Shown: positions 20,466 through 61,649 of the stretch, piece after piece
Numbering within the stretch: the first letter of the stretch is position 1
Layout: the number at the start of each line of letters is the position of its first letter
Origin: Octopus vulgaris
Taxonomy: Eukaryota
Assembly: GCA_951406725.2 (NCBI GenBank)
Contig: OX597828.1
Span: 1,178,001 to 1,242,000, forward strand
DNA length: 64,000 nt
Reading direction: 5' to 3'
Made by a program: the position numbers and the translations under genes
The notes under the pieces: model-generated
What the model was told of the DNA's origin: nothing
Database searches by the model: none
Seen by the model: only the letters and a program-made list of their open reading frames with translations

Positions 20466-20684
20466 AAATTCATCCCTTGCAACCCTCTCCAGCCAAGCAT
20501 CCCCAATCTTGTGGATCGTAAGTGCTGGTGCCATTTAAAATGCACCCAGTATACTCTGTAAAGTGGTTGGCATTATGAAGGGCATCCAGCTGTAAAAACC
20601 ATGCCAAAACAGCCCTTCAGCTGGTCAGCTTCTATCAAACTGTCCAACTCATGCCAGCATAAAAAACAGACATTAAATGATGAT

Positions 20685-20745
<61 letters not shown>

Positions 20746-20748
<3 letters not shown>

Positions 20749-23523
20749 AGCCTTTGATATTACTCAAGGCCTTTGATGAAATAGAAGGGGATATAGCTTC
20801 ACACGGTGTAGAAGACAACTGGAGGCTTCTACAGGACAACCTGCTGAGAGCTACTGACCAGATCTGTAGATGGTGCAAACTCCCCTCTCTATCCAAAATA
20901 ACATGGTGGTGGAACAATGTTGTAGACAGGGCTATTAGAAAAAAGAAACCAGCTTGGAAGAACGGTGGTAGCAGGGAACTGTATCAGACTGCCAGAAGTG
21001 AAGCTAGGAGACAGGTTTATTTAGCCAGAGGGGAAGCAGATAAGAAAAAATTTGTCAATGTTCTGAGCCGTGATGACCAAAGACTTGAGGTATTTTGTGT
21101 TGCCAGACAGTGTGTGAGAGAGAATCATGATGTTGTAGGAGAGAAATGTGTCCACATGGATGATGGTTCACTTGCACTAAATGAGGCTGCAAAGAGAGAG
21201 GTTTGGAGATGCCACTATGAAAGGTTGCTCAATAAAGAAAATGAATGGGAGAAAGAGAGTCTGCCGAATGTTGACCCAACAGAGGGACCAGCTATCCGAT
21301 TTGACAGTATCTTGGTAGATAAAGCAGTTAAGAGTATGAAGACAGGAAAAGCCCCCGGTCAATCAGGAATTACTGCAGAGATGCTCAAAATATCTGGCAG
21401 TGTCGGCTATAGCCTAGTCACCCGTATAGTTAATCAGGTGATACATGAAGGAGTCATACCCAATGACTGGTGTAGCAGCATAATAGTCAACTGCTACAAA
21501 GGTAAAGGTGATGCATTAGATACAAATAATTACAGAGGTATCAAGCTGTTGGATCAGGTAATGAAGGTCACGGAGAGGGTCATAGCCCAACTAATTAGGG
21601 AGAGAGTCAGTTTAGATGAGATGCAGTTTGGGTTTGTGCCAGGGAAATGCACCAGTGATGCCATATTTCTGGTAAGGTAGCTGCAGGAGAAATACCTAGC
21701 CAAAGATAAGCCCCTATACCTGGCTTTCGTTGACATGGAGAAATTCTTTGACAGGGTCCCCTGATCCCTTATCTGGTGGTCAATGTGGAAACTAGGGATA
21801 GATGAATGGTTAGTGAGAGCTGTGCAAGCCATGTACAGGGACGCTGTCAGTAAGGTGAGGGTTGGCAACGAGTACAGTGAAGAATTCCGGGTAGAGGTAG
21901 GGGTCCACCAAGGTTCAGTCCTCAGCCCCCTCCTATTTATCATAGTCCTCCAGGCAATAACGGAGGAATTCAAAATAGGATGCCCCTGGAAGCTCCTCTA
22001 TGCTGATGACCTTGCCCTAATTGCTGAGTCACTATCAGAACTAGAGAAGTTTCAAGTGTGGAAACAAGGATTAGAATCGAAGGGCCTTAGAGTCAACCTA
22101 GCTAAAACCAAAGTCCTAATAAGTAGGAAGGCAGGCAAACCACAAATCCCTTCAGGTAGAAGGCCCTGCTCGATATGTAGTAGAGGCGTAGGTAGAAACT
22201 CTATAAGATGTACCGAGTGTAAGCTATGGACACATAAGAGGTGCAGCAATATCAAAGGAAAGCTAACTGGGAAAATAGTTTTTGTATGTGGCAGATGCTC
22301 AGGAGCAATAAACAGTGAAAATGTGCAGAGAACAACTTCCGCCACATTCCAGGGAGAAAACTAGAAATAGTTGATAGCTTCCGTTACCTAGGTGACCAAG
22401 TCAGTATCGGGGGAGGGTGCGCTGAAAGTGTAGCTGCTAGAATAAGAATAGCCTGGGCAAAGTTCAGAGAGCTCTTACCTCTGCTGGTGACAAAGGGCCT
22501 CTCGCTCAGAGTAAAAGGTAGACTGTATGATGCATGTGTATGAACAGCCATGCAATATGGCAGTGAAACTTGGGCCATGACTGCTGAGGACATGTGTAAG
22601 CTCGAAAGGAATGAAGCCAGTATGCTCTGATGGATGTGTAATGTCAGTGTGCATACTTGACAGAGTGTAGGTACCTTAAGAGAAAGGTTGGACCTAAGAA
22701 GCATCAGATGTGGTGTGCAAGAGAGACGACTGCGCTGGTATGGTCATGTGGCGAGAATGGATGTGGATAGCTGTGTGAAAAAGTGCCACACCCTAGCAGT
22801 TGAGGGAACCTGTGGAAGAGGTAGACCCAGGAAGACCTGGGATGAGGTGGTGAAGCATGACCTTCAAACATTGGGCCTCACTGAGGCAATGACTAGTGAC
22901 CGGGACCTTTGGAAATATGCTGTGCTTGAGAAGACTCGGCAAGCTGAAGTGAGACCATAACCTTGTGGCCTATGCCAGGGGTGTAACCAGCCCACTTATG
23001 CGTACCTCTCCTTCATTGGACACTAAACTCTGCTTCGAAGACCTGTTGAGGCAAGTGAAATTGAAATGAAATTCGATGACTGGCATCTGTGCAAGTGGAG
23101 TGCTAAGAGTACCATACAAGCGTGATCATTACCAGAGCAAGCTGGCCTCCTTGCTGATGGGCATGTAAAAAGCACCATCCAAGTGTGATCGTTACCTGCG
23201 TCGCCTTACTGGCACTTGTGCTGGTGGCACGTGAAAAACATTTGAGCGAGGTCGTTGCCAGTGCCGCTGGATTGGTTCCTGTGCAGGTGGCACATAAAAA
23301 GCACCATTTGAGCATGGTTGTTGCCAGTACCGCCTGACTGGCCCTCGTGCCGGTGGCACATAAAAGCACCCACTACACTCTCAGAGTGGTTGGCGTTAGG
23401 AAGGGCATCCAGCTGTAGAAACTCTGCCAAATCAGATTGGAGTCTGGTTTGCCAGACCTCAGTCAAATCGTCCAACCCATACTAGCATGGAAAGCAGACG
23501 TTAAATGATTATGATGATGATGA
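20746..23523 (+). mobile_element. RTE LINE, 5'-truncated, with 3' UTR and (GAT)n tail
   Basis: RT motifs NYRGIKLL, GVHQGSVLSPLLF, YADD and C-terminal RRLRWYGHV. Tail ACGTTAAATGATTATGATGATGATG. Confidence 0.92.
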
Positions 23524-32882: not shown

Positions 32883-35800
32883 CATCATCATCATCATTTA
32901 GCGTCCGCTTTCCATGCTAGCATGGGTTGGACGGGTCAACTGGGGTCTGTGAAGCTGGAAGGCTTCGTCAGGCCCAGTCAGATCTGGCAGTGTTTCTACG
33001 GCTGGATGCCCTTCCTAACGCCAACCACTCCACGAGTGTAGTGGGTGTTTTTTACGTGCCACCTGCACAGGTGCCAGACAGAGCTGGCAAACGGCCACGA
33101 ACGGATGGTGCTTTTACGTGTCACCGGCACGGGGCCAGGCGATGCTGGCAATGGACACGAACGGATGGTGCTTTTACGTGCCACCGACACGGGGCCAGAC
33201 AGGGCTGGCAAACGGCCACGAACGGACGGTGCTTTTATGTGTCACCGGCACGGGGCCAGACAGAGCTGGCAAACGGCCACGAAGAGGCGGTGCTTTTACG
33301 TGTCACCGGCACGGGGGCCAGCTGAGGCTGGCAACAGACATGAACGGATGGTGCTTTTACATGCCACCGACACGGGGCCAGACAGAGCTGGCAAACGGCC
33401 ACGAACGGACGGTGCTTTTACGTGTCACCGATATGGGGCCAGGCGAGGCTGGCAATGAACACGAATGGATGGTGCTTTTACGTGCCACCGACACGGGGGC
33501 CAGACAGAGCTGGCAAACGGCCACGAGCGAATGGTGCTTTTACGTATCACCGACATGGGTGCCAGACGAGGCTGGCAGCGGACACGAAGGGATGGGTCAC
33601 TTAACCCCTGCTTTCTGATATATGATTTGATTTTAATTGTTCTCACTGGTCTTGCCGGGTCTTCTGACGCACAGCATACTTCCATAGGTCTCGGTCTCTG
33701 GTCATTTCCTTGGTGAGACCTAGAGTTCGAAGGTCGTGCTTTACCACCTTGACCCAGGTTTTCCTGGGTCTACCTCTTCCACAAGTCCCCTCAACTGCTA
33801 GGGTGTGGCACTTTGATTCTAAACCTTGCTTTGATTCTAAACCTGAAATTTCTTCTCCAGTTCTGATAGTGACTCAGCAATTAGAGCAAGGTCATCAGCA
33901 TAGAGGAGCTCCCAGGGGCATCCTGTCTTGAATTTCTCCGTTATTGCCTGGAGGACTATGATAAAAAGGAGGGGGCTGAGGACTGAGCCTTGGTGGACCC
34001 CTACCTCTACCCGGAATTCTTCACTGTACTCGTTGCCAACCCTCACCTTACTAGCAGCGTCCCTGTACATGGCTTGCATAGCTCTCACTAACCATTCATC
34101 TATTCCTAGTTTCCTCATTGACCACCAGATAAGGGATCGGGGGACCCTGTCGAAGGCTTTCTCCATGTCAACAAAAGCCAGGTACAGGGGCTTATCTTTG
34201 GCTAGGTATTTCTCCTGCAGCTGCCTTACCAGGAATATAGCATCAGTGGTACTTTTCCCTGGCACGAACCCAAACTGCATCTCATCTAAACTAACACTCT
34301 CTCTAATTAGTTGGCTTATGACCCTCTCCGTAACCTTCATCACCTGATCCAACAGCTTGATACCTCTGTAATTATTTGTATCTAGGGCATCACCTTTACC
34401 TTTGTAGCAGTTGACTATTATGCTGCTACACCAGTCATTGGGTATGACTACTTCATGTATCACCTGATTAACTATACGGGTGACTAGGCTATAGCCGACA
34501 CTACCAGATATTTTGAGCATCTCTGCAGTGATACCTGATGGGCCTGGGGCTTTCCCTGTCTTCATGCTTCTAATTGCCTTAGCTACCAAGGAACTATCAA
34601 CCCTGATAGCTGGTCCCTCTGTTGGGTCAACGTTCGGCAGACTCTCTTTATCCCATTCATTTTCTTTATTCAGCAACCTTTCATAGTGGCGTCTCCAAGC
34701 CTCTCTCTTTGCATCCTCGTTTAGCGCAAGTGAACCATCTTCCATGCGAACACACTTCTCTCCTACCACATCACAATTCTCTCTCACACACTGTCTTGCA
34801 ATGCGAAACACCTCCAGTCTTTGGTCTTCACGGCGCAGAACATTGGCAAATTTTTTCTTATCTGCTTCCCCTCTGGCTAGATAGACCTGTCTCTTAGCTT
34901 CCCTTTTAGCAGTCTGATACAATTCCCTGCTACCACCGTTCTTCCAGTGCTTCCAAGTCTGTCTCTTTTCTCTAATAGCCCTGTCTACAACACTGTTCCA
35001 CCACCACGTTCCCTTGGGACGAGAGGGGACTTTGCACCAGCCACAGATCTGGTCAGTGGCTCTCAGCAGGTTGTCCCTTAGAAACGTCCAGTTGCCCTCT
35101 ACCCCATGTGATACTGTATCCCCTTCTACTTCGTCAAATGCTTCAAGTAGCATGTCTCTAAATCCCTGTCCATTCGCAGGATCTTTAAGCTTCCAGATCC
35201 TTTCTTCTCCATGTTGGTCGTCTTCTTGTTGTCCTCCTAGTCCTGATCCTAAAGTCACTAACTACCAGTCTATGTTGTGGGGTACATTCTTCGCCTGGGA
35301 AGGTTTTGGCATTTATAAGTAGCCATCTCTCCCTTTGCCTGGCAAGGATGTAGTCAATTTGGCTGGTATGTTGGCCCGATCGGTAGGTGACTAGGTGGCT
35401 GGTAGGTTTCCTGAAGTTAGTGTTGCAAATCATAAGATTATTTGCATCGCAGAACTCCAGCAGCCTGGTTCCCTCCTCGTGCGGGAACCAGAGCCATAGC
35501 CTCCATGTACGCCATGGAAGCCCCCAGCATGTCGTCCAACCTGACCATTGAAGTCACCAGCCACAAAGAGAAGGTCCCTGTCGTTCGTCAACGAGGTTGT
35601 CTGGTAGAGTGTCATAGAATCGGTCTTTCTGTCCATTAGGTAGCCTCGACTGAGGAGCATAGGCTGATATAATGGTTGCTAAACTATGATGAAGCGCTAA
35701 TCTAATTTTAAGTATTCTGTCGCATACTCTGATTACCTCAATTACTTTATCTACCCATTTCTCAGCGATAAGTATACCCACGCCTCCAACCCCGTCAGTG

Positions 35801-36704
35801 TTCCCTGCCCAGAAAATCTTGTACCTGTGTTCCTTGCCTGTGAGGAACCTAGCAGAACCTCCTCTCCACCTTACTTCTTGCATGCAACATATATCCACAC
35901 ATCTCCGTTCAAGCATCTCAACTATCTCTCCAGACCTACCTTTCAGTGTGCCAACATTGAGGGGGTGCCAACCCTGAGGGTGTGGGAGGTATGGGCCCTA
36001 GAGACCCTGCGTCGGTGGACAGTAGCTTCATGTACCTGAAAAGAAAGCTCGCATTTGGCAGAATTCATGAGCAAGTAGTACAGTAGCCTTCAATTCAACC
36101 TGCATAACACTACCCATTCATATTTTGCACTGTATGATCATTACCTTACCTAGGTCGAAACTAGGGGTAGGGATGGTGAAAGAGCATTTGCAGTCTTCAA
36201 GGGAAGCAACCCAGGGATGGAAAACAATAGTAACTTCCGGCATGTGTGGAGGGGGCGGGTGGGCGGGTCAACCCCAAACTAGCAAGAGGATTCTGTTAAT
36301 CATGAGAGCAAGAAAGCAGGTTTGAAAAATATCAGAGAAAGTCAAATTTTAGGGGAGACGATGAGTGGCTATGAAACGGGAGCAAATAGGGAGACAAGAC
36401 TAAACGAAAAACATTACATGAATGGTATGTTGAAAACTGAAAGAAAATATGAAGAGAGGGTACTGAAAGGATAATAGAGAAAAATTGAAGAATAATGAAA
36501 GAATAGTGATTATACGTGCAAAGGGTAGGAGAAAGCGAGGTTGAAATAAATCTTAGCTTTAGCCGTTCATGAGCTGTGCGTTTGTAGTGGAGTTGAAAGC
36601 AAGTGGGGTTACCGATTTGCGATCGCTAGTTTATATATGGCGATGGTGGTTATCGAAGACGGGGGCATATAGAAACATAGGGAGAGGGACAGGGTTAGTT
36701 AGAG
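32883..36704 (-). mobile_element. RTE LINE with both ends, internal deletion after RT, minisatellite in 3' UTR
   Basis: APE (CCMQEVRWRG, SAYAPQ, GDFNG, SQIDYIL) and RT ORF 35258-33837. (GAT)n tail at 32883. Flanked on both sides by the same 28-bp tandem repeat. Confidence 0.92.
33040..33590. repeat. ~60-bp GC-rich minisatellite (~9 units) in the RTE 3' UTR
   Basis: Unit approx GGTGCTTTTACGTGTCACCGGCACGGGGCCAGACAGAGCTGGCAAACGGCCACGAACGGAT. Confidence 0.9.
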
Positions 36705-37009: not shown

Positions 37010-40000
37010 AGCGCAAAAACTGTGAAATGTATGCAGGTTGTAGTCTAGTGTTTCCATATGAAATCTGCCAAATGCAAGCTTTCTTTTCAGGTACATGACA
37101 CGGCTGTCCCTCATCCCAGGGTCTCAGAGACCCACACCTCCCACACCCTCAGTGTTGGCACATTGAAAGGTAGGTCTGGAGAGATTGTAGAGCTGCTTGA
37201 ACGGAGACGTGTGGATTTATGCTGCATCCAGGAAGTTAGGTGGAGAGGAGGTTCCGCTAGGCTCCTCACAGGCAAGGAACACAGGTACAAGATTTTCTGG
37301 GCAGGGAACACTGACGGGGTCGGGGGCGTGGGTATACTTCTTGCGGAAAAATGGGTAGATAAGGTAATTGAGGTAGTGAGAGTAAGTGACAGAGTACTTA
37401 AAATTAGATTAGTCTTTCACCAGAGTTCAGCTACCATCATCTCGGCATATGCCCCTCAACCAGGTCTACCGGAAGGACAAAAAGACCAATTCTATGACAC
37501 CCTATTGCGGACTACCTCATTGACAAATGACAGTGATCTTCTCTTCGTGGCAGGTGATTTCAATGGACATGTTGGATGGCATATCGGGGGCTTCCATGGC
37601 GTTTATGGAGGCTACGGATTTGGCTCTCGTAATGAGGAGGGAACCAGGCTGCTGGAGTCCTGTGATGCAAATGACCTTATGCTCTGCAATACCAACTTCA
37701 GGAAACCCACCTCTCACCTAGTCACCTACCGTTCTGGCAGACACACTAGCCAGATTGACCACATCCTTGCCAGAAAAAGGGAAAGAGGGCTGTTTATAAA
37801 TGCCAAAACCTTTCCAGGCGAAGAATGTATTCCTCAACATAGATTAGTAGTTAGCGACTTCAGGATCAGAGCTAAATGGTTGCTCAGAAGAAGACCAGCT
37901 TGGAGGAGAAGGGTCTGGAAGCTTAAAGATCCTGCAAATGGACGGAGATTTAGAGACATACTACTCGAAGCCTTTGACGAAATAGAAGGGGATATAGCTT
38001 CACTTAATGTGGAAGACAACTGGAGATTTCTCCGGGACAATCTGCTGACAGCCACTGACCAGATCTGTGGATGGAGCAAAGTACCATCTCGACCCAGAGT
38101 AATGTGGTGGTGGGACACTGTGGTTGACAGGGCTATTAGACAAAAGAGACAGGCTTGGAAGGACTGGAAGAACGGTGGTAGCAGGGAATTGTATCAGACA
38201 GCTAGAAGGGAAGCTAGGAGACAGGTTTATTTAGCCAGAGGGGAAGCGGATAAGAAAAAATTTGCCAATGTTCTGAGCCGTGAGGATGAAAGACTTGAGG
38301 TATGTGTTGCAAGACAGTGTGTGAGAGAGAATCGTGATGTGGTAGGAGAGAAATGTGTCCGCATGGATGATGGTTCACTTGCGCTAAATGAGGATGCAAA
38401 GAGAGAGGTTTGGAGATGCCACTATGAAAGGTTGCCGAATAAAGAAAATGAATGGGATAAAGAGAGTCTGCCGAATGTCAACCCAACAGAGGGACCAGCC
38501 ATCCGAGTTGAAAATTCTTTGGTAGTTAAAGCAATTAGAAGCATGAAGACAGGGAAAGCTCCAGGCCCATCAGGAATTGCTGCAGAGATGCTCAAAATAT
38601 CTGGCAGTGTCGGCTATAACCTAGTCACCCGTATAGTCAACCAGGTGATACACGAAGGAGTCATACCCAATGACTGGTGTAGTAGCATACTAGTCAACTG
38701 CTACAAAGGTAAAGGTGACGCCCTAGATACAAATAATTACAGAGGTATCAAGCTGTTGGATCAGGTGATGAAGGTTACGGAGAGGGTCATGGCCCAACTA
38801 ATTAGAGAGAGAGTTAGTTTAGATGAGATGCAGTTTGGGTTCGTGCCAGGGAAAAGTACCACTGATGCTATATTCCTGGTAAGGCAGCTGCAGGAGAAAT
38901 ACCTAGCCAAAGATAAGCCCCTGTACCTGGCTCTTGTTGACATGGAGAAAGCCTTGGACAGGGTCCCCCGATCCCTTATCTGGTGATCAATGAGGAAACT
39001 AGGGATAGATGAATGGCTGGTGAGGGCTGTGCAAGCCATGTACAGAGATGCCGTAAGTAAGGTTAGGGTTGGCAACATGTACACAGAAGAATTCAAAGTA
39101 GAAGTTGGGGTCCACCAGGGTTCAGTACTCAGCCCCCTCCTATTTATCATAGTCCTCCAGGCAATTACGGAGGAATTCAAGACAGGTTGCCCCTGGGAGC
39201 TCCTCTATGCTGACGACTTTGCTCTAATTGCTGAGTCACTATCAGAACTGGAGAAGAAGTTCCAGGTGTGGAAGGAGGGTTTAGAATCGAGGGGCCTTAG
39301 AGTCAACCTAGCTAAAACCAAAGTACTAATAAGTAGGAAGGTAGACAATCCACAAATGTCTTCAGGAAGATGGCCCTGCTCGATCTGTAGAAAAGGTGTA
39401 GGTAGAAACTCTATAAGATGTACCCAGTGTAAGCTATGGACACATAAGAGTTGCAGCAATGTCAAAGATAGGCTAACTGGGAAGATAGTTTTTGTATGTG
39501 GCAGATGCTCAGGAGCATTATCCTCCGAAAATCTGCAGAAAACAACTTCCGTCACTTTTCAGGGGGAAAAACTAGAAGTAGTTGATAGCTTCCGTTACCT
39601 AGGTGACCAAGTCAGTTGTGGGGGTGGGTGCGTTGAAAGTGTAACTGCTAGAATAAGAATAGCCTGGGCAAAGTTTAGGGAGCTCTTACCTCTGCAGGTA
39701 ACTAAAGGCCTCTCGCTCAGAGTAAAAGGCAGACTGTATGATGCATGTGTACAAACAGCCATGCTACATGGCAGTGAAACATGGGCCGTGACTGCTGAGG
39801 ACATGCGTAAGCTTGCGAGGAATGAAGCTAGTATGCTCCGATGGATGTGTAATGTCGGTGTACATACTCGACAGAGCGTTAGTACCTTGAGAGAAATGTT
39901 GTACCTAAGAAGCATCAGTTGTGGTGTGCAAGAAAGACGATTGCGCTGGTATGGTCATGTGGCGAGAATGGATGAAGATAGGTGTGTGAAAATGTGCCAA

Positions 40001-40503
40001 TCCCTAGCAGTTGAGGGAACCCGTGGAAGAGGTAGAGCCAGGAAAACCTGGGACGAGGTGGTGAAGCACGACCTTCGAACTTTAGGCCTAACTGAGGAAA
40101 TGACCAGCGACTGAGACCTTTGGAAATATTCTGTACGTGAGAAGACCAGGCAGGACAAGTGAGCCCAGCCCACTTATGCATGCCTTTCCTCCCTTGGACC
40201 CAAAGACCTGTTGAGGCAAGCGAAGTCGATATCGAACCTCATCCGATGACAGGCACCCATGCCAACCTCCTTTGCTTGTGAAGACATGTTGGGGCAAGTG
40301 AAATCGACTGGCTTCCTTGCCGGTGGCACATAAAATTCACCCACTACACTCATGGAGTGGTTGGCGTTAGGAAGGGCATCCAGCTGTAGAAACATTGCCA
40401 GATAAGACTGGAGCCTGGTGCAGCCTTCTGGCTTCCTAGATTCCCGGTCAAACCGTCCAACCCATGCTAGCATGGAGAACGGACGTTAAACGATGATGAT
40501 GAT
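37010..40503 (+). mobile_element. Near-intact RTE LINE (APE-RT-PHD-like ORF, 37058 to just past 40114)
   Basis: ORFs 37058-38986 and 38990-40114 are in the same frame, separated by one TGA where paralogues have TGG. A second TGA at 40112 lies near the C-terminus. (GAT)n tail. Confidence 0.95.
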
Positions 40504-49392: not shown

Positions 49393-52300
49393 TGCAGGAC
49401 AGTTTCACCATCCTGCTTGCATCTTGCTCAAACCATCAATGGCGCACACCCATGTCTAAAGACCTTTTCTTGAACCAGTAAAGCTCCTCTGTAACATTGG
49501 CAGGCCAGGGACTTTTGGTAATTATCCATAGGCCCCGGCCCAAATGTTCTTTGGAACAGGTTGGCCAGTTGATCTTTGTCGAAGCCCAGAGTTTCTCCCA
49601 GGACGTCGTTACACTTAATCTCTACTAACCCTTAAACTTAAACTCAACTAACGAGGTAGTACACCCCGCCATCGGCATTGCCTGACTGGGAGAGAAGCAC
49701 GTGTGCCTGATGGCACTCTGCATGCCACACACCCAACCTCTGTCTATACTTTATCTATGGGTTCAGTTTGGTAAACGATGTGAACTGTGGAAACAACAGC
49801 TTGATGAACAGAGACCACATCTGCTCACCGTCCAGGTAAAACCAGAGGTGCCTAAGAGGTGTCTGCGCATTTTTAGCCACAGCATCCCTAGCCCACCCTT
49901 CAGTGGCTTTTGGCAGCAGATGGAGCGCCTTACAAGAGGTCTGCTGCCCCTCCACAAAAAGCGAAAGAGCATGCATTCCAGTTTGTTCAGCCACGAATCG
50001 GTCAGGTAGTAGGTGATTACAGAGGCGATAAACACCTCTCCAACCTCCGCCCTCCCTTTCAAGGACAGCCTCCGCTCAGACCAGGTCTGAGTTAGGAGTG
50101 CTACCTCGCTCCAATTCCTCTCTATCTGGAGATCTGGACCTAACCAGACTCCAAGCATTTTTACTGGCCCTTCCATCCAATGTCCCACGACGCTGTCGGA
50201 AGGCATTGACTTGCCCCTACAGGTGCCGGTTTGCAAGCCGATCAATTTATTCCAGTTGATTTTCGCTCCTGCCAGCGTTTTGTAATCCCTTAAGGCCTCA
50301 CCTACCCACTGTAGGTGCTTGACCTGGGATACGATGACAGTGATGTTGTCCGCATATGCTGAAGTTGACTTTCCACACCCTAGATCTTGCGGAGCATCCC
50401 TCATAGCTTCCAACCTCCTCGGCAATGGCTTGAGGGCCAAAACGTAGAGAAGTGGGGAGAGGGGGCACTCTTGATGTACTGAATGTTCAATGCTGAATGG
50501 CTCTGAAAAGAAAACGTTCACCTGAACTACTGATTCAATGTTGCTGTATAAAGCGTTAATCCATCTGTGGACGGTCGGCCCGAAGCCAGCCGCCATGAGG
50601 ACCGCCGCCAGATACTGATGGTCTACCCTGTTGAATGCTTTCGATTGGTTTAAATAGACCATACCCCCACCCTTGCCAGGAATCCTATTTACCCTTTCTA
50701 AGGCATAGCGTAGAAAGTGGAGATTGTCGTGGATGGTCCTGCCAGGGATGGTGCAAGGTTGTGCCTCGCCAACAAATTCACCCATGACCTGCACTAACCT
50801 TTTTGCTAAAACCTTGGCCAAAATCTTCAACTTTGCATTAAGCAGAGTGATGGGCTGAAAATTATCAATTAAATCACCCTTGTTTGGGTCCTGTTTTAGT
50901 GCCACCACCCCTTGGCTCACAGACTTGGGAATTCTCTCGTTCTACTGCCTGTTGGTGTACACGCATGCAAGTAGGTGCCCAAACAAGTCTGGCATGCTAC
51001 TATAGAGTTTGTAAGGCAGACCATTGAGTCCCGGCAATTTGTTCCCACTGCAGTCTGCCAACACATCTTTGATTTCCTTGGCTGTGATTGGCGCTTCACA
51101 AAATTCTGCATCCCGCCCCGACAGATATGGCAAACCGGCCAGGAAGTCTGCAAGCTTTTCCTTGTGCTCCAGTCTGCCACTCCTCATGAATATTTGGGTT
51201 CATTTACTGATCGACCATATGGGTCCGTCAAAGATCGAATGGTTGAGTTGTTGCCACACTGGCTCTCTACCACCCGGGCCCATCCGGCCACGTTGATCCC
51301 TTCCTGTCTCATTGCACGTATCTTAGCCCTGACAATGCACCCTTCGTGTTTAGCATTGAGATGTTGGTCGAGTGCCAACCTTGCCGCTAACACTTTCGAT
51401 GCACCGCCTGACCTCATTTCCTCGTCTACTGCCTCAACTAGTTCCTTTTCTACTTTGTTTCTAGCACTAGCTAATTCTTTTCTAAATATAATTGACTCAA
51501 ATTTGATGGCTCTTTTCCAATAGCGACTTGTTTAGCTTCCAGTAACTGGTACCTCGTCTTCACATACTATCTAGGTCGTGCGTACAGGTCAGTAATTTGT
51601 GATTGATGTAGCTGACGATATGGTGTTGTGGACATCTAAGTATTTTCTTATCTTTCTTTCTAGTAATGATTCTATCTATGTAAGATCTGGACTACCCGTC
51701 ATTTCTTGCCCAGGTCCATGCTGGAATGTCTGGGTGGCCCAGTCTGAATCGATCTGCCAACTTAAAATGACTTAGCAGATCGTTGAGGTAAGGGTATCCC
51801 CTCCTATTCTTTCTCGAGCCAACATAATTTATGCGGGCATTGCAAATTGTGTTGAAGTCGCCGAGCAATAGTAACGTGTTCGACATGCCAAGAAAATTCT
51901 GTCTGGCTTTTCCTTCACAGGGAGCATAGACAGCGACCAGCCTAAACACTTTACCACTGCTGTGCGTCACATCCAAAACAACCAACCTGCCTTCTGGATC
52001 TATAAAGACAGTTCTAATCACTAAATCCATGTTTTTCCTGACTAGTACTGCCACTCCTCGCCCCCTCCCAGTTGGCAGGGAGAAACATATTTCTCGTAGC
52101 CGTTTAGAAGGGGCGAAAAAGCCTGCAGCCCACTCAGTTTGGATTCGGTAATTACAACTACGTCCAAACGATGCAACCCAAGGTCGTCAAGGAGGCAACC
52201 TTGCTTCCAATCCGACCCCAGACTGCGTACATTTAAACAACCGACTTTAAATGAGAATGTGAAAGATAAATCATATGTTTAAAAATTACTGTTTTAATGG

Positions 52301-53967
52301 GAGAGAGGGTGTAGTTTCACCCTCCTCATTTCTGTCTGCAAGTGTTGAGGTTTGCGAGGTCATTTTTTTAGAGAATTGCCTGTACAGATGGCTCGAAAAG
52401 TTCATCTGTAACAGGCTGATGTCCTCCGCAAAAGATTTTTTTAGTTTGAAATAGTCTGTGTTGTCGATAATATAAAACTCGACATTTGCAAGAATTGTTT
52501 AAATCTGTTTAAATCTATTTAAATCTGTTTAAATCTATTTAAATCTGTTGCGATATATTTTTTCGACGACTTCATTAAAACAATTTGGTCTCTCAAGAGT
52601 TTGTTATTTTTGTTTATCGCTGTGAAGTTGTTTCTCTTTTTTTTTATTAGGCGATTGTGGAGGGGTATGTGTGTGTGCTTGTAGATGCGTAGGTGTTTGT
52701 AGGTGTCTGTGTTTGTGTGTCCTTTTTCCAGTGTGTGTGTTTTTTTGGCTAAGTGTGTGTTTGTGGGTGTGCTTTCTCTCTCTCTCTCTCTCAGCATAGT
52801 CCTGTGTATCCGAAGAGGGGGGGTCGTTTCCGTCTTCTTTTTGAAGGTTCCATGGTGACCCACTCCTGGTGTTGTTGTTGTTTTCTCCCGCTGTCAACTG
52901 TACCTCAGTAGTTTGTGCGCGTGACATGATTGCTATTTCTAGTGGTGTGGTCATTGTCTTCATTGCCTTTTCTGTTGTGTTTCCTTTGATTGTTTCTTTT
53001 TTCTTACAGTTCGACCTTATGTGGCCTTTCTCACCACATTTATAGCACCTCAGCTTTCGCCCCTCAACTACCACCATCAGGCTGGTATCTTCCTCAATTA
53101 TAATTGAACAGGGCATTTCTTCTCAATCGATGGGGTTTGCTTGAATGAAGAGCTCTAAGGCTTGTCCAACCCAGTTCATGTGGTGGTATCTCTTCGCCCG
53201 TAGAATGGTAATTTTTTCCTCTCTGCCCATGAGGATAGCAGCTACCAGCCAGGCCACATATATTTTGGGTGGTATATCACTGACCCTAACTTTGGAAGTT
53301 CTCCTTCCTAAGTTGACTTCAATGTCATTGTTGAATGTTCTCTGGCTTTTTCTTCGATAGGGAAACGCACTGCCGAAGCAACTACCCCTTGCTATATAAC
53401 TTGTTTGTTGCCATATTGGCCTCAAGCATTTCTCTATGGCTTCCCTCGTCACGAAGTCAATTTTTCTATTTTTGATGTGGTAAGTCTTATATGTTTAGTG
53501 TTTTTCTCTCCGTCATGTTGATTAATTCACTGGGGGGTAGCAGCTTCATATTTTCACCTTGTAGTAAACTTTGATATTTTAAAAAATCTTCCTTGCTTAT
53601 TTCAATATTTTCACAGGGGCGACTTGCTGCATTCACAAAATTAACTCTAGATTTTTCTTGTTGTGTAGCCTCACTAAACATTTTATCGTCAATGACATTG
53701 TAGCGAGTGCATGCGATGCTTCTATATCTTTACCGCTATGCCTTGAAACAAAATTTCAAAGATTTCCTTGGACTCGGAAGAAATTGGTGGCAAATTCATG
53801 TTTTTAGCTGTTTCCTCCTTGAAACAAGGGGGAAAAGACAGCAAAATTCTGCTGTAACAGCAGAAAAGAAGTGGTCTCGATGACCAAAATGGTAAATTTT
53901 CACAATCTTCAGCATAAAGACAATCTTTCACAGTGGAGCAAAGAATAACACGGCCAAAAAACAATTC
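49393..53967 (-). mobile_element. Tx1-type LINE, 3'-truncated, decayed
   Basis: ORF1 with CYKCGEKGHIRSNC knuckle; APE (LVAVYAP, GDFN); RT ORF 50920-49763 (QSKAFNRVDH, CPLSPLLY, AYADN). Ends within the C-terminal CxxC region. Confidence 0.9.
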
Positions 53968-54371
53968 CAGTGGCAGAAGTCACTAGAAAAACTCTTATAT
54001 ATTTGCAAACAGGCCTTTTCTTTCATCGTGATCTGGTGATTACCACCCGTTAATAAGAGGCAATAACCTCGAAACCATGGTCTGGTGCGTATCACTTAGG
54101 CTTACGAGAAAGGGATGGCCTCCCTTTGCAAATACCATACCAGCTGGAGACGATGATCTTCTGGGGCTAAAAAGCTACAGTAACACCCCCCTTTGTGGTT
54201 AGCCATATTGAGATGGCTATTATACTTTACATTGTCGAGCGATTACTGTTTACATCTCGTTCTGAGATTTAATAATGCTTACAGACAGTTTTTTTGAAAT
54301 CAGTGGCAGAAGTCACTAGAAAAACTCCTATGTATTTGCAAACAGGCCTTTTCTTTCATCGTGATCCGGTG
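53968..54371 (+). repeat. 333-bp tandem unit with hammerhead (retrozyme-like): unit 1 plus 5' part of unit 2
   Basis: CAGTGGCAGAAGTCACTAGAAAAACTC at 53968 and 54301. The rest of unit 2 resumes at 61089-61343. Confidence 0.9.
54036..54095 (+). ncRNA. Hammerhead ribozyme copy 1 (G5 mutated, probably inactive)
   Basis: GTGATTACCACCCG-TTAATAA-GAGG-CAATAA-CCTC-GAAA-CCATGG-TC-TGGTGCGTATCAC. Confidence 0.7.
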
Positions 54372-57264
54372 TTTTGACTCATCTAGGGACCCCTCTTTCA
54401 TCTGCGTATTGAGAAGTTAGCTGCCTATTTTGTTGAGTGAGTTCGTTTTTTGTTCGTCGTTGTTTGTGTTTGCTCGTGAATTGAACAGTTATCCGTTGTG
54501 TGACAGTAATTTTTGCCCTACAGGGCTGAAAATTCTGTGTATAAACATTGTTATTACCTTCGGGATAATTTTTTTTTTTATTGAAAAATTGGTTCTCATA
54601 ATTTGAGAAATGGAGTTCGACTTGGTGTCGAGGAGCAACTTTCCCGTGATGGGAAAAGGTGAACAGAAGGATATCGAGGTTAAAAAACAGTCTTTTTCGG
54701 CCGCAGTGAACGGAACCGTAACGGAAGTAGAATTTAAAATAGAACAGTTGTTCGAATACCGGAACTTGGTAAAAAAGGAAGGCAACGAAATAAAACTGGT
54801 ACCGCCGCAAGCGATATTACAGGAAATAAAGACCAAGACAGTTGTATACAAGGTTTACAGTAACAAAGAGAAAAAAATAATGGACGTGAAGAACGAAATA
54901 GTAGAGAAGTGCTTGTCCCCGGTGTGGAGCAAAATTCGCTACATCGGTCGAGGTGCCCGCAGCACTACCGTTGAAGTACATTTCGACTCGGCTGATGTGG
55001 CAAGAGAGATTTCATCGATGACCTTAAAAAGTGAGGACATCATGTTACTACCTACTTATATGGGAAAAAGAACTGCGAAACTATATGTGGAAGACATTAC
55101 AAGAGGATATGATATAATGTGGGTAGCAGCGGCGGTTCTGCACGACGTAGAGCAGAAAGTTTCAATTCTGCAGATGAAAAGGAAAGAGGAGGTAAACTGG
55201 AAGGGACAAGCACTCGAACTCCTCGTTTAAGCAGAAAATAATGTGCTAGAAAACTTACCCGATAGGGTATTTATTGAGGAGGGAATTACAATGAGAGTGT
55301 CAGTGGAGGGGCGCAGACCTAGGTGTTTCAAATGTGGTGAAAAGGGTCACATCCGCTCGAACTGCATAAAAAAAAAGAAAAACAGCGAAGCCCCTCCTCA
55401 AAGTGCTTCAAACACAGAAAAAGAAAAGGCGGAAAAAGACCCCAAGACTACGACAAGGAAGGGAATCGAAACGGAAGATAAAAATGAACAAAAATGGAAT
55501 TTACACATGTGACACACAAAAGAAAAAAAGAGAATACCCTGGACTCCCCTCCCCAAAGAAAAAATCAGCAAACACCGCAGAGATACATACAAAACAAATT
55601 CCCCAGCCCTACCCCCACGGCACTGTCCCTCCCCATAAAACAAGATTGGAAAAAATTGATTTAAAAAAATGAAAAGATTGTAGCATTCGATGAGAAGAAC
55701 GATAGAGTGTTTAAGTATTTTAAATTTTCAAAACTGAAATTATTCAGTAAGTCTGCAGACACTAAGTCGACCACTCGTTTTGCAAAAATAAAGGAAGACG
55801 AGTGGAAGGAAAAAACACTCCAAGAACATTTTAAAAATAACCTCATTAGAGATGTAACCAACGAAATACTGGAGGGCAAACTTACAATAACCCCGGCAAC
55901 CACACCTACCCAGAGCCCTGCAGCTACGACCACAAGGGAGGAAGAAGGGGAAGCATGCAGATTTAAACTGTCATGCTCCCTGTCCCAACCGTAAGTTTAT
56001 TTTTTTCTCTCTCTCCGACAATGGCAAAGCTGGGTTGTGTGAATGTGCGTGGAATGGGGTCGAAATGGAAACAAATTTGTCTCCTGAACGACCTCACGAC
56101 ACACGGAGTGGACGTAGCTATTGTAACCGAGTCCAAGATGAACGGGGCCCAAGCGTTCTCGCCTCTTCTAAATGGTTTCGAGAAATTTATTTCTCCTAGC
56201 CGAGGAGGAGGAAGGGGCGTGGCAGTCCTTATCAGGAAGAGCTTGGACTTGCAGGTAAGTACTGTCTTTCTGGACCCAGAAGGCAGGCTGGTCGTTCTGG
56301 ATGTGACCCACGTAAGTAAACAGTCCTTCAGGTTGGTAGCTGTCTACGCTCCGAATGAGTGTAGGCAGTCGGGTTTTTTTTGGAATCTGGAGCACTTTTT
56401 AGTGACGTCGAAAACGGTAGTCTTAGTAGGGGGACTTTAACACTGTCCTCGAAGCGCGGGTCGACAGTGTTGGCTCAACCAATAGGAAGGGGAACCCTAG
56501 TCTCAAGGGTCTACTAGAGAGCTTTAATCTAGTAGACCGTTATCGACTGGATGAGCCGAGCGTTCCACAGTGGACGTGGAGTAACAACGACGGCTCACGC
56601 AGATCGTATATACATAAGATATTCGTTAGGAAAAGAGATAAGGATACGTTTAGTTGTCCACAGTTTCACATTGTGCCTTACACGGATCACAAATTTGTGA
56701 CTTGTAGGGTGCAATTAGATAAGTGTCATAGACAGGGACCCGGGTACTGGAAGCTGAACAAGTCTATTTTGAATTGTGAAGACTTCCGTACCCGGATTAA
56801 GGTGTTAGTACAGAGGGCATTATGTGGCACCATCATTAACAATAGATGGTGGCACTCCCTCAAAAGAGCCATTCGTTCAGAGTCCATTAGATTTAGCAAT
56901 CAGCTAAGGTTAGATAGGTCTAGGATAGAGGACGATTTAGTTAAGAATCTAAACGAGGCAATGGAATCTGGCTCTGCATCCGGAGTGATGGCGGCAAGGA
57001 CGGTATTGTACCGTCACCTTAACTCCAAACACGAAGGTTGCAGAGTTAGAGCTAAGCTATGCGCAGGGAAACGAGAAGGTATTAACGTTGCCGGATGGGC
57101 CCGTCGAGTGGAGAGTCAGAGAGGCAACAAAGCTTCAATCAAGTCTTTAACTGACGAACAGGGACACAAGATCTATGGACAGGAGGAGATGCAAAAGTTT
57201 CTTCACCAGCATTTCACCCGCGCATTTGGGGGTGGTGGTTCGCTGGAGCCGGGCAGGGCCTTAA

Positions 57265-58733
57265 CCCTTTCGATACCAAATCGCCCAAAGCCGCCCGAAA
57301 AAAATTTTGGTTAATGTGACCAAACCGCCCAAACTCGCCCGTATTTACCTATTCATATTTAAATGAGAATATCAGAGCAAATCTCTTTAGTACATTCGTG
57401 AAAACACGTATTATACTTCGTAAAGAGTTCAACTACAGTTTTGTACAACAATCTAAGTGTAATTTTAATTCCGTGAATTTTGGGAGATTTTTTTCCGAAA
57501 TTTGTTCCTATTGTGTTTTCAAAATTTGTAATTCTGACAAAAAATGGATACGAATTTCATTATATCAAGCAGCGAGTCAGAATTCGAAGGATTTTCTACT
57601 GAAGACCTTCATAAATCTAACTCAATGACTGAAAAAAAAGCACGTGGTATTTGATAATGAATCTGATGTTTCATTTTCCGAAAGTGAAAATAGTGAATTC
57701 GAGAGCTCCGACAGCGATAAAGAAAATGAATTGGCACCTGAATGGAGTGAAAATTTAAAAACTGTTTCTTTCGGTGATTTTTCTGAAGAAACTGGACCAA
57801 GCCGGAGTGGCGCAGGAGTGGCTGTGTGGTAAGTAGCTTGCTAACCAACCACACGGTTGCGGGTTCAGTCCCACTGCGTGGCATCTTGGGCAAGTGTCTT
57901 CTGCTATAGCCCCGGGCCGACCAATGCCTTGTGAGTGGATTTGGTAGACGGAAACTGAAAGAAGCCTGTCGTATATATGTATATATGTATGTATGCGTGT
58001 GTTTGTGTGTCTGTGTTTGTCCCCCTAGCATTGCTTGACAACCGATGCTGGTGTATTTAGGTCCCCGTCACTTAGCGGTTCGGCAAAAAGAGACCGATAG
58101 AATAAGTACTAAAAGGTGGTGCTCCAGCATGGCCGCAGTCAAATGACTGAAACAAGTAAAAAGAGAGAGAGTAAAAAGAGAGTAAGCCACAGACTTTCCC
58201 AGAAGAGTAAAGCCTTAGACTATTTCTTTTTACTTTTTCGAATGAGCCCATTTGAAATCATTATGGCGGAAACGAACCGTTACGCTAAACGTAAACAAAG
58301 CGAAGGAAAAGATAGTTAGTGGTTTCCCATAACCTTAAATGAAATTAAGACTATTTTGCCATAAATATTATTATGGGTATCAGAAAGTTACTCAGAATAA
58401 CAAATTCTATCGTAAAATTTTGTTGTATACCCAATTGAATATTAGTTAATAACCCATTTTCTATAGCGATGTTTGAACAACATTTTAATAATTTTATATT
58501 TTGTTGAATTTACCTGTATCTACCTGCAATTAGAGTCACTTTGTGACAAAAATTATAGTATAGAATTGGTTGTGAACATTTCATTAAATTATCTTCCAAA
58601 ATTCGCGTTAATATATTGATAAATAAAAAAGTTATAGTTGTTTAATGAAACCAGACTAAATTTATGATTATGTCAGAAATTAATTGAAACACATAAGGGG
58701 TGTATTTTGGTCAGAAATATAGTAACGAAAGGG
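57265..58733 (+). mobile_element. piggyBac element, internally deleted
   Basis: TTAA TSDs (57261-57264, 58734-58737) and TIRs CCCTTTCGATAC / GTAACGAAAGGG. Acidic transposase N-terminus and LDYFFLLF...IMAETNRYA...WFPITLNEIK (PGBD-like). Confidence 0.9.
57804..58183 (+). mobile_element. tRNA-derived SINE inserted in the piggyBac
   Basis: A/B-box head GGAGTGGCTGTGTGG...GGGTTCAGTCCC, 3' GAAACAAGTAAAAAGAGAG tail, TSD AAGCC at 57799-57803 and 58184-58188. Confidence 0.9.
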
Positions 58734-61088
58734 TTAAAGGACTTCCTAGCCGGCGGACCGCGGTTCTCGGGGCGTGAGGTGGAGTGCTGTGAAGGAGTGA
58801 TCACTCCCGCGGAGATAGAGGGGGTACTGGCCAGATGTGCTGCCCTACGAGTTTTATCAAAGTATGCCGGACTTGTTCGGGGGAATACTGGCAGGCGTCT
58901 ACGCGAACTGGCAGCAGAACGGGAGAATTCCCAGTGGTGACGCTAATCCAGAAAGACCCGAGCAAGGGGGATAACATTAGTAATTACAGGCCCATAACTC
59001 TACTTATTGTAGAGTTAAAGATTTTGGCCAAGGTGTTGGCAAAAAGGTTGACGACTGTCATGGAGAAACTTGTAGGGAAAGCACAGACATGTGCAATTCC
59101 AGGCAGGTCGATCCAGGACAATCTTCACCTTATACGCTACACCTTAGATAGGGTGGGTAAATTAACCGGCAAGGGCGGGGTAATGGTCCATTTAGACCAA
59201 AGTAAAACGTTCGATAGGGTAGACCATAAGTACCTGGCGATGGTCCTCGAAGCGGCTGGACTGGGCCCTGAATTTCGCGGGTGGATCTCCGCTATGTATA
59301 GCGGCATCAAGTCCACCGTCCAGATAAACGGTTACCTAATGGAACCGTTTTCGATCGAATGTTCAGTTCGTCAAGGGTGCCCCTTGTCACCACTTTTGTA
59401 CGTGTTGGCTCTCGAGCCATTGCTGCGAAAGTTGGAGAGGCTGGGAAGTAACCCGGATGAGATCGAAGGCGGGAGGACGGTTTCTGCTTATGCGGATGAC
59501 GTCACCCTCATCGTGTCCAATGAGGCTCAGCTACCTTGTGTAGAAGATGCTATCAGAGGATACGAGGCGGTGGCAGGAGCAAAAGTTAACAAGGACAAGT
59601 CGATTGGCTTACGCCTCGGCACCTAGAGGAGCAAGTCGATATCGTCCAGTGCCGTGGGACACTGGACAGATGGTCCTGTTAAGTTGCTAGGAGTTTGGTT
59701 TGGCCAGACTCCCAAACGGAGAGGAATTGGAGTGAGGTGACGGGCAAGGTGGAGGCCATAGTACGGACCTGGTCCGGAAGGTTTCTGTCCTTGAAAGGAA
59801 GGGCGGAGGTGGTACAGATGTATATTGCATCTGTAATCACTTACCGCCTGACCGTTGTCCCTTGCCCCGATTCATGGCTTAGCAAGTTGGAGCGAATCCT
59901 TTTCCGCTTTTTGTGGAAGGGAGGAAAGCCACTTGTGAGGCGCTCCGTTTGCTGCCAGGAACCGTTAAAGGGTGGGTTAGGAATGCCTTGGTTGATGATG
60001 CGCAGACATGGTTGAGGCTGAAGCATCTCTGGCACCACCTGGAGGGTGATAAGGTGTGGAGTCTGCTGGCAGGGGAATTTTTCCCAAGACCGGCTTCCTT
60101 AGTGAATTTTAAACCCGGTTGCATCAAAAGACGGAATCTGACTTTATGGCAAAAGGAGTGCCGACAGGCACTCACGCTGATCCACAAGGCGGGCAAGGCT
60201 GGCTGCGGAAATACCACCTCGGTATTTTATAGCAGGCTGGTAGAGGCAAAGAACGACGACGTCCTAGGAGGAGCTCTGGGGTTCGACGAGGACCAGCTTA
60301 CCAACCTGTTTAAAAATACTTTCAGGACGGGGTATTTGGATAATTTCCAAAGATCCCTAGCCTGGCAGTGTTACAGGAATGCTTTACCTGTTCGCGAGAA
60401 GTTATCGCGGCACGGAATTTCAGTGCCACCGACATGTCCAAGATGCGGGTTGGACGATGAAACCATCCAGCACGCTTTTGTACACTGTCGGCAGTTGTCA
60501 GACTTGATAAGTTACGCAGAACACGTGTTATCGCATCTGGGACGAGTACAGCTGTCGGCTGAGTCTATGATTAAGATGATACCGCCAACTGGACTCTCGA
60601 AGGAAAGGTGAGGCATGTTTTCACTGCACGGTTGCAGTAGTAAAAGAATGCATGTGGCGTACAAGAATGGAAGGAGTCGCAATAGGATCCTTTGTCTCAG
60701 GCCCCGGCTTGCTCACTTACTTCAGATATCATCTGAAGAGCAAAATGGGGCTGGAAAAGAAGACCTTACCATGAGGTGTGTATGAAAAAAGATGGAAGGA
60801 AGTGGCGAAAAAGGTGGGTGTCAGAAACCCAGTTTAACTATGGATGGAGAAGAGGAAAGGAAAGCTGCTGGGCCTTATAGGTTGCCGGGGTTTAAAATAT
60901 ATCAGTAAGATTTCAATCTAATGTAATGTTATATTAGTCAATGCAAAGGACAATTTAAATACAGTTTTTTGTATAATGAATAATCCATATATTTTGGAAA
61001 TTTTTAAATGAACCACTTAACTGTTTTTTGTATGTATGTCCTGTATTGTTCTTCTATGTACTGATTTTATAATCATAATAAAGAATTA

Positions 61089-61343
61089 ATCGTGATCTGG
61101 TGATTACCGCCCGTTGATAAGAGGCAGTAACCTCGAAACCGCGGTCCGGTGCGTATCACTTAGGCTTACGAGAAAGGGATGGCCTCCCTTTGCAAATACC
61201 ATAAGGGCACAGATAGTGTACCTAAAGCCAGCTAAAGCTACAGTAACACCCCCTTTTGTGGTTAGCCATATTGAGATGGCTATTGTACTTTACATTGTCA
61301 AGCGATTACTGTTTACATCTCGTTCTGAGATTTAATAATGCTT
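61089..61343 (+). repeat. Remainder of retrozyme-like unit 2
   Basis: Colinear with 54025-54281 except for a divergent middle segment; ends in (TA)n. Confidence 0.9.
61100..61159 (+). ncRNA. Type I hammerhead ribozyme with U3-A8 covariant core, predicted cleavage after C61146
   Basis: GTGATTACCGCCCG (stem I 5') - TTGATAA - GAGG CAGTAA CCTC (stem II) - GAAA - CCGCGG (palindromic stem III) - TC - CGGTGCGTATCAC (stem I 3'). Confidence 0.8.
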
Positions 61344-61649
61344 ATATATATATGCCTGTGCATATATGGGTACAGCACATAAAAAAGACGTGAACAAAAT
61401 GAAAAATGAGAACATAAAAAAACAAAGACATGGAAAATTAACTTTTTTCGAACAATGAAAGAAACAAGTAGAGAAACGAGGAGGCAACATGAAGAACGAT
61501 TCCTTCATCAGTTGTCCCCTGTTTTATCTACTCTGCATTTCAAATGTTGGGACAAGACGCGACTTCGTTACAACAGTCGTTCTCGCAAAGCAATTTAAAT
61601 AAAATTTTGGATTTGCAGAGAGTTAAAGTGGTAACAAAAACAGGACAGT

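Follow-up and report, generated by a model that had tools for sequence, protein, structure and literature searches.

Target-Specific Insertion of an L1/Tx1-Type LINE Lineage into a Likely Hammerhead Retrozyme of Octopus vulgaris

Organization of the Locus

The window, that is, the whole 64-kb stretch of Octopus vulgaris DNA that was analysed, contains a dead LINE flanked on both sides by pieces of a short repeat carrying a predicted hammerhead ribozyme (Table 1). Once its nested insertion is subtracted, the LINE measures 5,248 bp (~5.25 kb), and it is further damaged by stops and frameshifts. The 1.47-kb nested insertion, presumably piggyBac-like by its hallmarks, itself contains other repeats. 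The LINE ORFs matched PF03372, PF00078, PF13966, and PF00098, human L1 ORF2p was the closest solved relative, and the domain set of Tx1 elements was found, namely APE, RT, and a C-terminal zinc-binding domain in ORF2 and a CCHC knuckle in ORF1. Judging by these domains, the element appears to belong to the L1/Tx1-type LINEs; protein searches returned no named Tx1 reference. At another locus (L206), ORF2 is unbroken over 1,146 codons.

Table 1. Features at and around the LINE insertion, in window coordinates. Retrozyme and hammerhead assignments are predictions. TSD: target site duplication.
Feature	Position	Strand	Remarks
Neighbouring older LINE of another family, outside the system	49393..53967	-	Adjoins the repeat at this locus only
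Upstream retrozyme unit, 333 nt	53968..54300	+	Hammerhead ~54036-54095, G5 to A at 54052, altered stem III
Start of next retrozyme unit, split by the LINE	54301..54371	+	Hairpin ~54301-54319; TATA-like word 54329-54334
5' TSD copy, 14 bp, ATCGTGATCCGGTG	54358..54371	+	
L1/Tx1-type LINE, subfamily A, dead copy	54372..61088	+	93-95% identity to 15 other copies
ORF1 with CCHC zinc knuckle	54610..55991	+	Broken by stops and a frameshift in the window copy
ORF2: APE endonuclease, reverse transcriptase, C-terminal zinc-binding domain	55967..60831	+	Broken in the window copy
1.47-kb insertion nested in the LINE; TTAA duplication, short inverted ends	57265..58737	.	Window copy only
LINE 3' end: AATAAA plus 6 nt	61077..61088	+	Target joined without poly(A)
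3' TSD copy, ATCGTGATCTGGTG	61089..61102	+	First 3 nt of distal stem I (61100-61102) inside the overlap
Remainder of the split retrozyme unit	61089..61344	+	Stops at one of two preferred 3' ends, followed by (TA)n
Type I hammerhead, U3-A8 core, palindromic stem III	61100..61159	+	Predicted cut after C61146

The two 14-bp copies of the duplication differ by one mismatch, and the 3' copy does extend into the first bases of stem I, as an earlier note on this DNA had described. The same note placed the LINE in a ribozyme array. Retrozyme sequence was indeed found on both sides of the LINE, but it amounts to only ~1.2 units upstream and 0.8 unit downstream, and the upstream hammerhead (~54036-54095) is likely inactive. 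Elsewhere in the window, a 61-bp tandem repeat of about nine copies (33050-33595) has related copies near other loci, and another long repeat is present in three copies (20562-22646, 33837-35967, and 37049-40114) that are ~90% alike, with ORFs of up to 645 codons.

The Hammerhead and Its Repeat

The hammerhead downstream of the LINE comprises the core UUGAUAA (61114-61120, a U3-A8 variant), stem II (61121-61134), GAAA (61135-61138), and a palindromic stem III (61138-61145). It looks intact and lies in the sense orientation, and its predicted cut falls 58 nt beyond the LINE 3' end, in agreement with the distance of ~58 nt given in the earlier note. A hammerhead descriptor gave one match in the 64-kb window versus none in 20 mononucleotide shuffles. 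No hammerhead was found among the 40 Rfam matches at E ≤ 0.1, probably because of the U3-A8 core, and the folding z-scores of the window hammerhead were modest (−0.8 to −1.85). The type I call is based on the core nucleotides (YUGANRA...GAAA...UH), the 3-8 pair, the three stems, and covariation across 40 distinct copies. The 3-8 pair was formed in 39 of these copies (CG in 20, UA in 14, and UG in 5) and compensatory changes were observed in stems I, II, and III, while the 10.1-11.1 pair was formed in just 25. Co-folding gave an 8-bp intermolecular stem III. The combination of a U3-A8 core and a palindromic stem III is described for Penelope hammerheads, which cleave weakly as monomers (PMC4209133).

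The repeat unit is non-coding and ~355 nt long (range 330-385 nt). Most copies comprise one to two units, with direct and inverted pieces that are truncated at the 5' end. Two 3' ends, ~45 nt apart, are preferred, and the insertion sites are AT-rich. A ten-unit array with a 355-bp spacing was also found (L321-L322, G000:C4:13620967-13624193); in L321, three consecutive units were read, each containing the core, and this array is likely a source of multimeric RNA. Non-coding tandem units of 150-450 nt, at least two of them consecutive and with a complete hammerhead, correspond to the unit features reported for non-LTR retrozymes (PMC7229834), for which an origin as non-autonomous derivatives of Penelope has been put forward (bioRxiv 10.64898/2026.07.22.740005). 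The 5' truncations and inversions, AT-rich targets, and two 3' ends are those expected of a Penelope-derived repeat, the last fitting the two-start 'tail' of Penelope (PMC11167929). The target repeat is thus likely a non-autonomous Penelope-type retrozyme. With the systems described in these reports and in PMC4209133, it has in common the size of its units, the type I hammerhead with U3-A8 and a palindromic stem III, copy numbers from monomers to a 10-mer, AT-rich sites, and the tail-like spacing of its 3' ends. Unlike the non-LTR retrozymes described there, it serves as a host for LINEs; its self-cleavage, and linear and circular monomer RNAs such as those of non-LTR retrozymes, are predictions.

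A second, distant retrozyme family (family 2) was observed at two loci (L171 and L175, in tandem at L171), with a ~385-nt unit, a CCGAUGA core, and a longer palindromic stem III; its alignment score was 149 versus 64 ± 8 for shuffled sequences. A small hairpin lies ~57 nt upstream of the insertion site in the window (~54301-54319), and its pairing, judged by eye, is kept across the subfamilies and in family 2. This hairpin and its homologues are candidates for an RNA or promoter element.

Genome-Wide Census of Insertions

The genome (2.8 Gb, 227 contigs) was searched with a LINE-internal 32-nt pattern, allowing up to three mismatches, a design that more diverged copies escape. It gave 68 matches, all of which were read, versus none for the reversed control. 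Sixty-seven of the 68 3' ends were found at the same target site: 61 in retrozyme family 1, two in the distant family 2, and four stacked on another LINE in the duplicated site. The only off-target copy (L203) has a duplication of 12 bp that is similar to the target read in reverse complement. A query made of the LINE only, from which 40 3' flanks were scored and 30 read, led to the same repeat in 27 cases, a related repeat in one, and the 5' end of another LINE in two, and the target 14-mer terminated all 30 5' flanks. Reading of the family's flanks thus did not return the unrelated sequences that had been named beforehand as speaking against targeting. A share of flanks above 20% in one repeat type has been used to define target specificity (PMC4494074), and 67/68 is far above this value. 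Target specificity for the retrozyme repeat, as proposed in the earlier note, is strongly supported.

Two subfamilies were distinguished among these ends, A (48 ends) and B (20 ends), with duplications of mostly 14 bp for A and 17-20 bp for B, and B prefers other retrozyme subfamilies than A. A TSD was found at 54 of the 68 ends, 34 of them being perfect, with locus-specific sequences, and none of the 68 3' ends carries a poly(A) tract. In empty retrozyme copies, the 14-mer was present once in each of the 25 that were read, and one tight pattern of intact sites had 292 exact matches, a few of which are junctions of a third family, C, described below.

Contigs from four runs, labelled as four organisms, also contain the LINE, with empty-site joins in X1, X10, and X17. 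None of the pieces listed from these runs bridged the LINE-target junction; the sequences found are all contigs, with no entry recorded as RNA, and RNA ends and strand are not readable from contigs. Among 80 metagenome loci at 23-48% identity, many of them short and too distant to bear on this lineage, no hammerhead matching the descriptor was found.

Independence of the Insertions

In subfamily A, the pairwise identity was 97.1% for the LINE versus 81.7% for the flank, and the two were uncorrelated (Mantel r 0.07, p 0.23). This comparison covered 38 copies with family-1 flanks and a LINE portion of 450 nt or more, after exclusion of three compound loci. For the 18 copies of subfamily B, the values were 97.7% and 91.2% (Mantel p 0.11). 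By comparison between the two sides, the retrozyme halves flanking one LINE were 95% alike (median of 48 loci), with seven loci below 90% and the window locus at 88%. Fifteen 5'-truncated copies with different cut points were all on target at the 3' junction; at the 5' junction, eight of them join the upstream target at the expected site and seven are without it. Similar LINEs in diverged flanks, together with locus-specific TSDs, thus indicate independent insertions into pre-existing repeats.

Five loci (L016, L210, L174, L195, and L215) contain 5'-truncated LINE pieces without a direct upstream target; in two of them, the downstream retrozyme has an inverted twin. These loci are possible Penelope-mobilised LINE-retrozyme chimeras.

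Related LINE Families

Family C is 83% identical to A/B in ORF2, with different UTRs. Of its 12 ends, eight were located at the target with a hammerhead, one was stacked, two were at a target-like word before an unassigned element, and one was off target. The target site is thus common to families A, B, and C, which form one clade (support 97/96), sister to the other two LINEs of the window in a tree made of unnamed relatives only. At L311 and L314, a family-C end is followed by a target-like word and then by a T-rich stretch similar to the 5' UTR of a LINE, which may represent a fourth family at the site.

The second LINE of the window (49393-53967) had been put forward in the earlier note as support for targeting. 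Its abutment in the opposite orientation at 53967/53968 was confirmed, but none of 19 other copies of its family (L152-L170) has a retrozyme at the 5' junction, and this LINE was rejected as support. One of the 19 has a 66-nt retrozyme scrap ~250 nt off, away from the junction. The 5' ends of this family are mostly in or beside (CT)n, a location similar to the microsatellite targets of Kibi and Koshi. The third LINE (6165-11084, minus strand) had been credited with a different target, and this proved correct: its family (L323-L327) has a 13-bp duplication and four of six ends at the same word in another repeat, which has no hammerhead. This family, which looks target-specific too, has the same tail-less 3' end as A, B, and C.

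Discussion

The reading that we favour, with a probability of about 0.75, is that of a target-specific L1/Tx1-type lineage with a single insertion position, the predicted hammerhead cut lying 52-67 nt downstream of it. In this reading, insertion likely proceeds by target-primed reverse transcription from a nick that the element's endonuclease has made, and transcription likely comes from the upstream retrozyme, without a need for the ribozyme. From the biology of Tx1L, R1Bm, and R2, the APE domain would select and nick the site, target-primed reverse transcription would follow, and pairing of the read-through RNA with the nicked target would give the uniform tail-less 3' junction. At four loci (L184, L220, L221, and L225), this junction is shifted by 2-3 nt and the additional bases are those of the upstream flank at the same locus, which indicates that the 3' duplication is target DNA. 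As for the 5' side, the LINE RNA would begin with target sequence of the donor locus, as suggested by 5' duplications carrying alleles of another retrozyme subfamily. The benefit for the LINE would be a dispersed, non-essential target, renewed by the retrozyme's own spread.

These foreign alleles were scored by eye and post hoc: differences between TSD copies that match the allele of another subfamily were found in the 5' copy in 7/13 cases versus 1/11 in the 3' copy (Fisher p 0.033). Donor-type 5' TSDs with recipient-type flanks were observed in L185, L226, L230, L198, L208, L199, and in L227 for its family-C end. The original allele of L199 is preserved in an inverted twin, and the beginning of the foreign tract lies 56-95 nt upstream. 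Foreign alleles in the 5' duplications would imply an RNA starting in the upstream retrozyme, which would then probably be the source of the promoter; we regard the chances that the retrozyme supplies the LINE promoter as evenly balanced. A TATA-like word at −26 to −32 was found in 27 of 41 loci and was missing in 14, the surrounding DNA being AT-rich, and is weak promoter evidence. A start set by this word exactly at the TSD was rejected since the L199 tract extends beyond it, to 56 nt upstream or more. The foreign alleles hint at an annealing of cDNA that carries upstream target sequence, similar to that described for R2 (PMC3774820); the signal is small, and gene conversion between copies would mimic it.

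Two other explanations for the distribution of the insertions were considered. The endonuclease might simply favour a short degenerate word whose frequency in the retrozyme is fortuitous, which would account for the off-target copy L203, whose duplication is like the reverse complement of the target, and for target sites that vary at several positions. The target motif (−4 to +14) holds ~20 bits, and at a weakest-decile threshold one match was found in 278 kb of background. By a very rough extrapolation, thousands of chance sites would be expected per genome, yet only one of 68 insertions lies outside the repeat. We thus consider this explanation very improbable. Moreover, the two insertion sites in family 2 have core-motif scores no better than the top 1% of the background, which probably indicates guidance beyond a short motif. 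It may also be imagined that one or a few LINE insertions occurred and that LINE and repeat unit then spread together, by the Penelope machinery or by duplication. A few truncated copies lacking a direct upstream target or adjoining a Penelope-style inverted copy (the five loci named above) are what occasional mobilisation of chimeras would leave. As a general cause, this spread is ruled out by the locus-specific TSDs, by a flank divergence far above that of the LINEs and uncorrelated with it, and by the match between the two halves at one locus; three LINE families and two retrozyme families also take part. It is the least probable of the explanations considered, and independent, targeted insertion is retained.

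The role of the ribozyme was weighed separately. The downstream hammerhead could cut read-through RNA ~58 nt past the LINE, thereby producing a fixed 3' end whose target complement primes reverse transcription; where a locus has two hammerheads, the LINE RNA might even become circular. In line with such a capture, the hammerhead is in every case unbroken by the insertion and in the sense orientation, a recognisable core is present in 49 of 63 retrozyme flanks with the cut located 56-61 nt from the LINE end in 46 of these 49, the hammerhead stems covary, the homologous position is used in the distant retrozyme family, and a direct upstream hammerhead lies ~313-322 nt away at L177, L202, L204, L222, and L062. 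However, in families A, B, and C alike, AATAAA precedes the junction by 6 nt, and since cleavage is expected 10-30 nt after this signal, ordinary processing would occur ahead of the ribozyme site. The related 6165-11084 family has the same tail-less end without any hammerhead, and ribozyme processing of the 3' end is thus probably dispensable. The chimeras at L016 and L210, if copied from RNA, would imply read-through that had not been cut, a later deletion being another explanation for them. In addition, hammerheads with a short palindromic stem III are reported as poor cutters when single (PMC4209133, PMC7229834), so that dimers would probably be needed. Processing by the captured ribozyme therefore seems unlikely to us. 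We are also doubtful of a broader proposal, in which the lineage, inserted just within the transcription unit of the retrozyme and transcribed from it, would use the promoter and the hammerhead of the retrozyme as an RNA-processing kit, its 3' end being cut by the host ribozyme, or both ends at dimeric loci to give a circularisable 5.6-kb RNA, and its site being found across diverged retrozyme families by a cue beyond the DNA motif.

Targets reported for Tx1 elements in PMC4494074 include DNA transposons, LTR elements, snRNA and 5S genes, satellites, and microsatellites, with examples such as Xenopus Tx1L (piggyBac-type Tx1D), crocodilian Tx1-Mar (Mariner-N4), Tx1-9_AMi (Harbinger), Tx1-8_Crp and Tx1-4_AMi (LTR elements), Keno (U2), and Kibi and Koshi (microsatellites). 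The present lineage resembles this clade as an APE-RT LINE with a fixed site in a multicopy or mobile element, TSDs, and tandem stacking; it differs in that a retrozyme is absent from the targets named in the accessible text of that article and in that several families use the site across diverged target subfamilies. If the LINE is co-transcribed with its target, it would be like R2, in which upstream target sequence on the RNA gives uniform 5' junctions (PMC3774820), and like R1Bm, in which downstream target sequence allows accurate 3' priming (PMC7265360). R2 has a restriction-like nuclease, and the HDV-like ribozyme at its 5' end is part of the element itself, whereas the hammerhead here belongs to the target and lies 3' of the element. 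An octopus repeat annotation (PMC13282606) lists 13 active L1-Tx1 families and, in its accessible part, hammerheads or ribozymes are unmentioned. A full-text literature search found no report of a Tx1 element targeting a hammerhead repeat, although Repbase entries or supplements may already record such a target. The retrozyme, with its predicted self-cleavage, is an added target class for site-specific APE retrotransposons.

The system amounts to three-layer parasitism: the LINE exploits a repeat that is non-autonomous and in turn likely relies on Penelope elements. With their different subfamily preferences, families A, B, and C make up a natural series for changes in APE specificity, together with the close relatives directed to (CT)n and to a further repeat, which bears on the design of site-specific insertion tools. 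Finally, the fixed distance to the hammerhead offers a clean test case for the use of a host ribozyme by a LINE in 3'-end formation.
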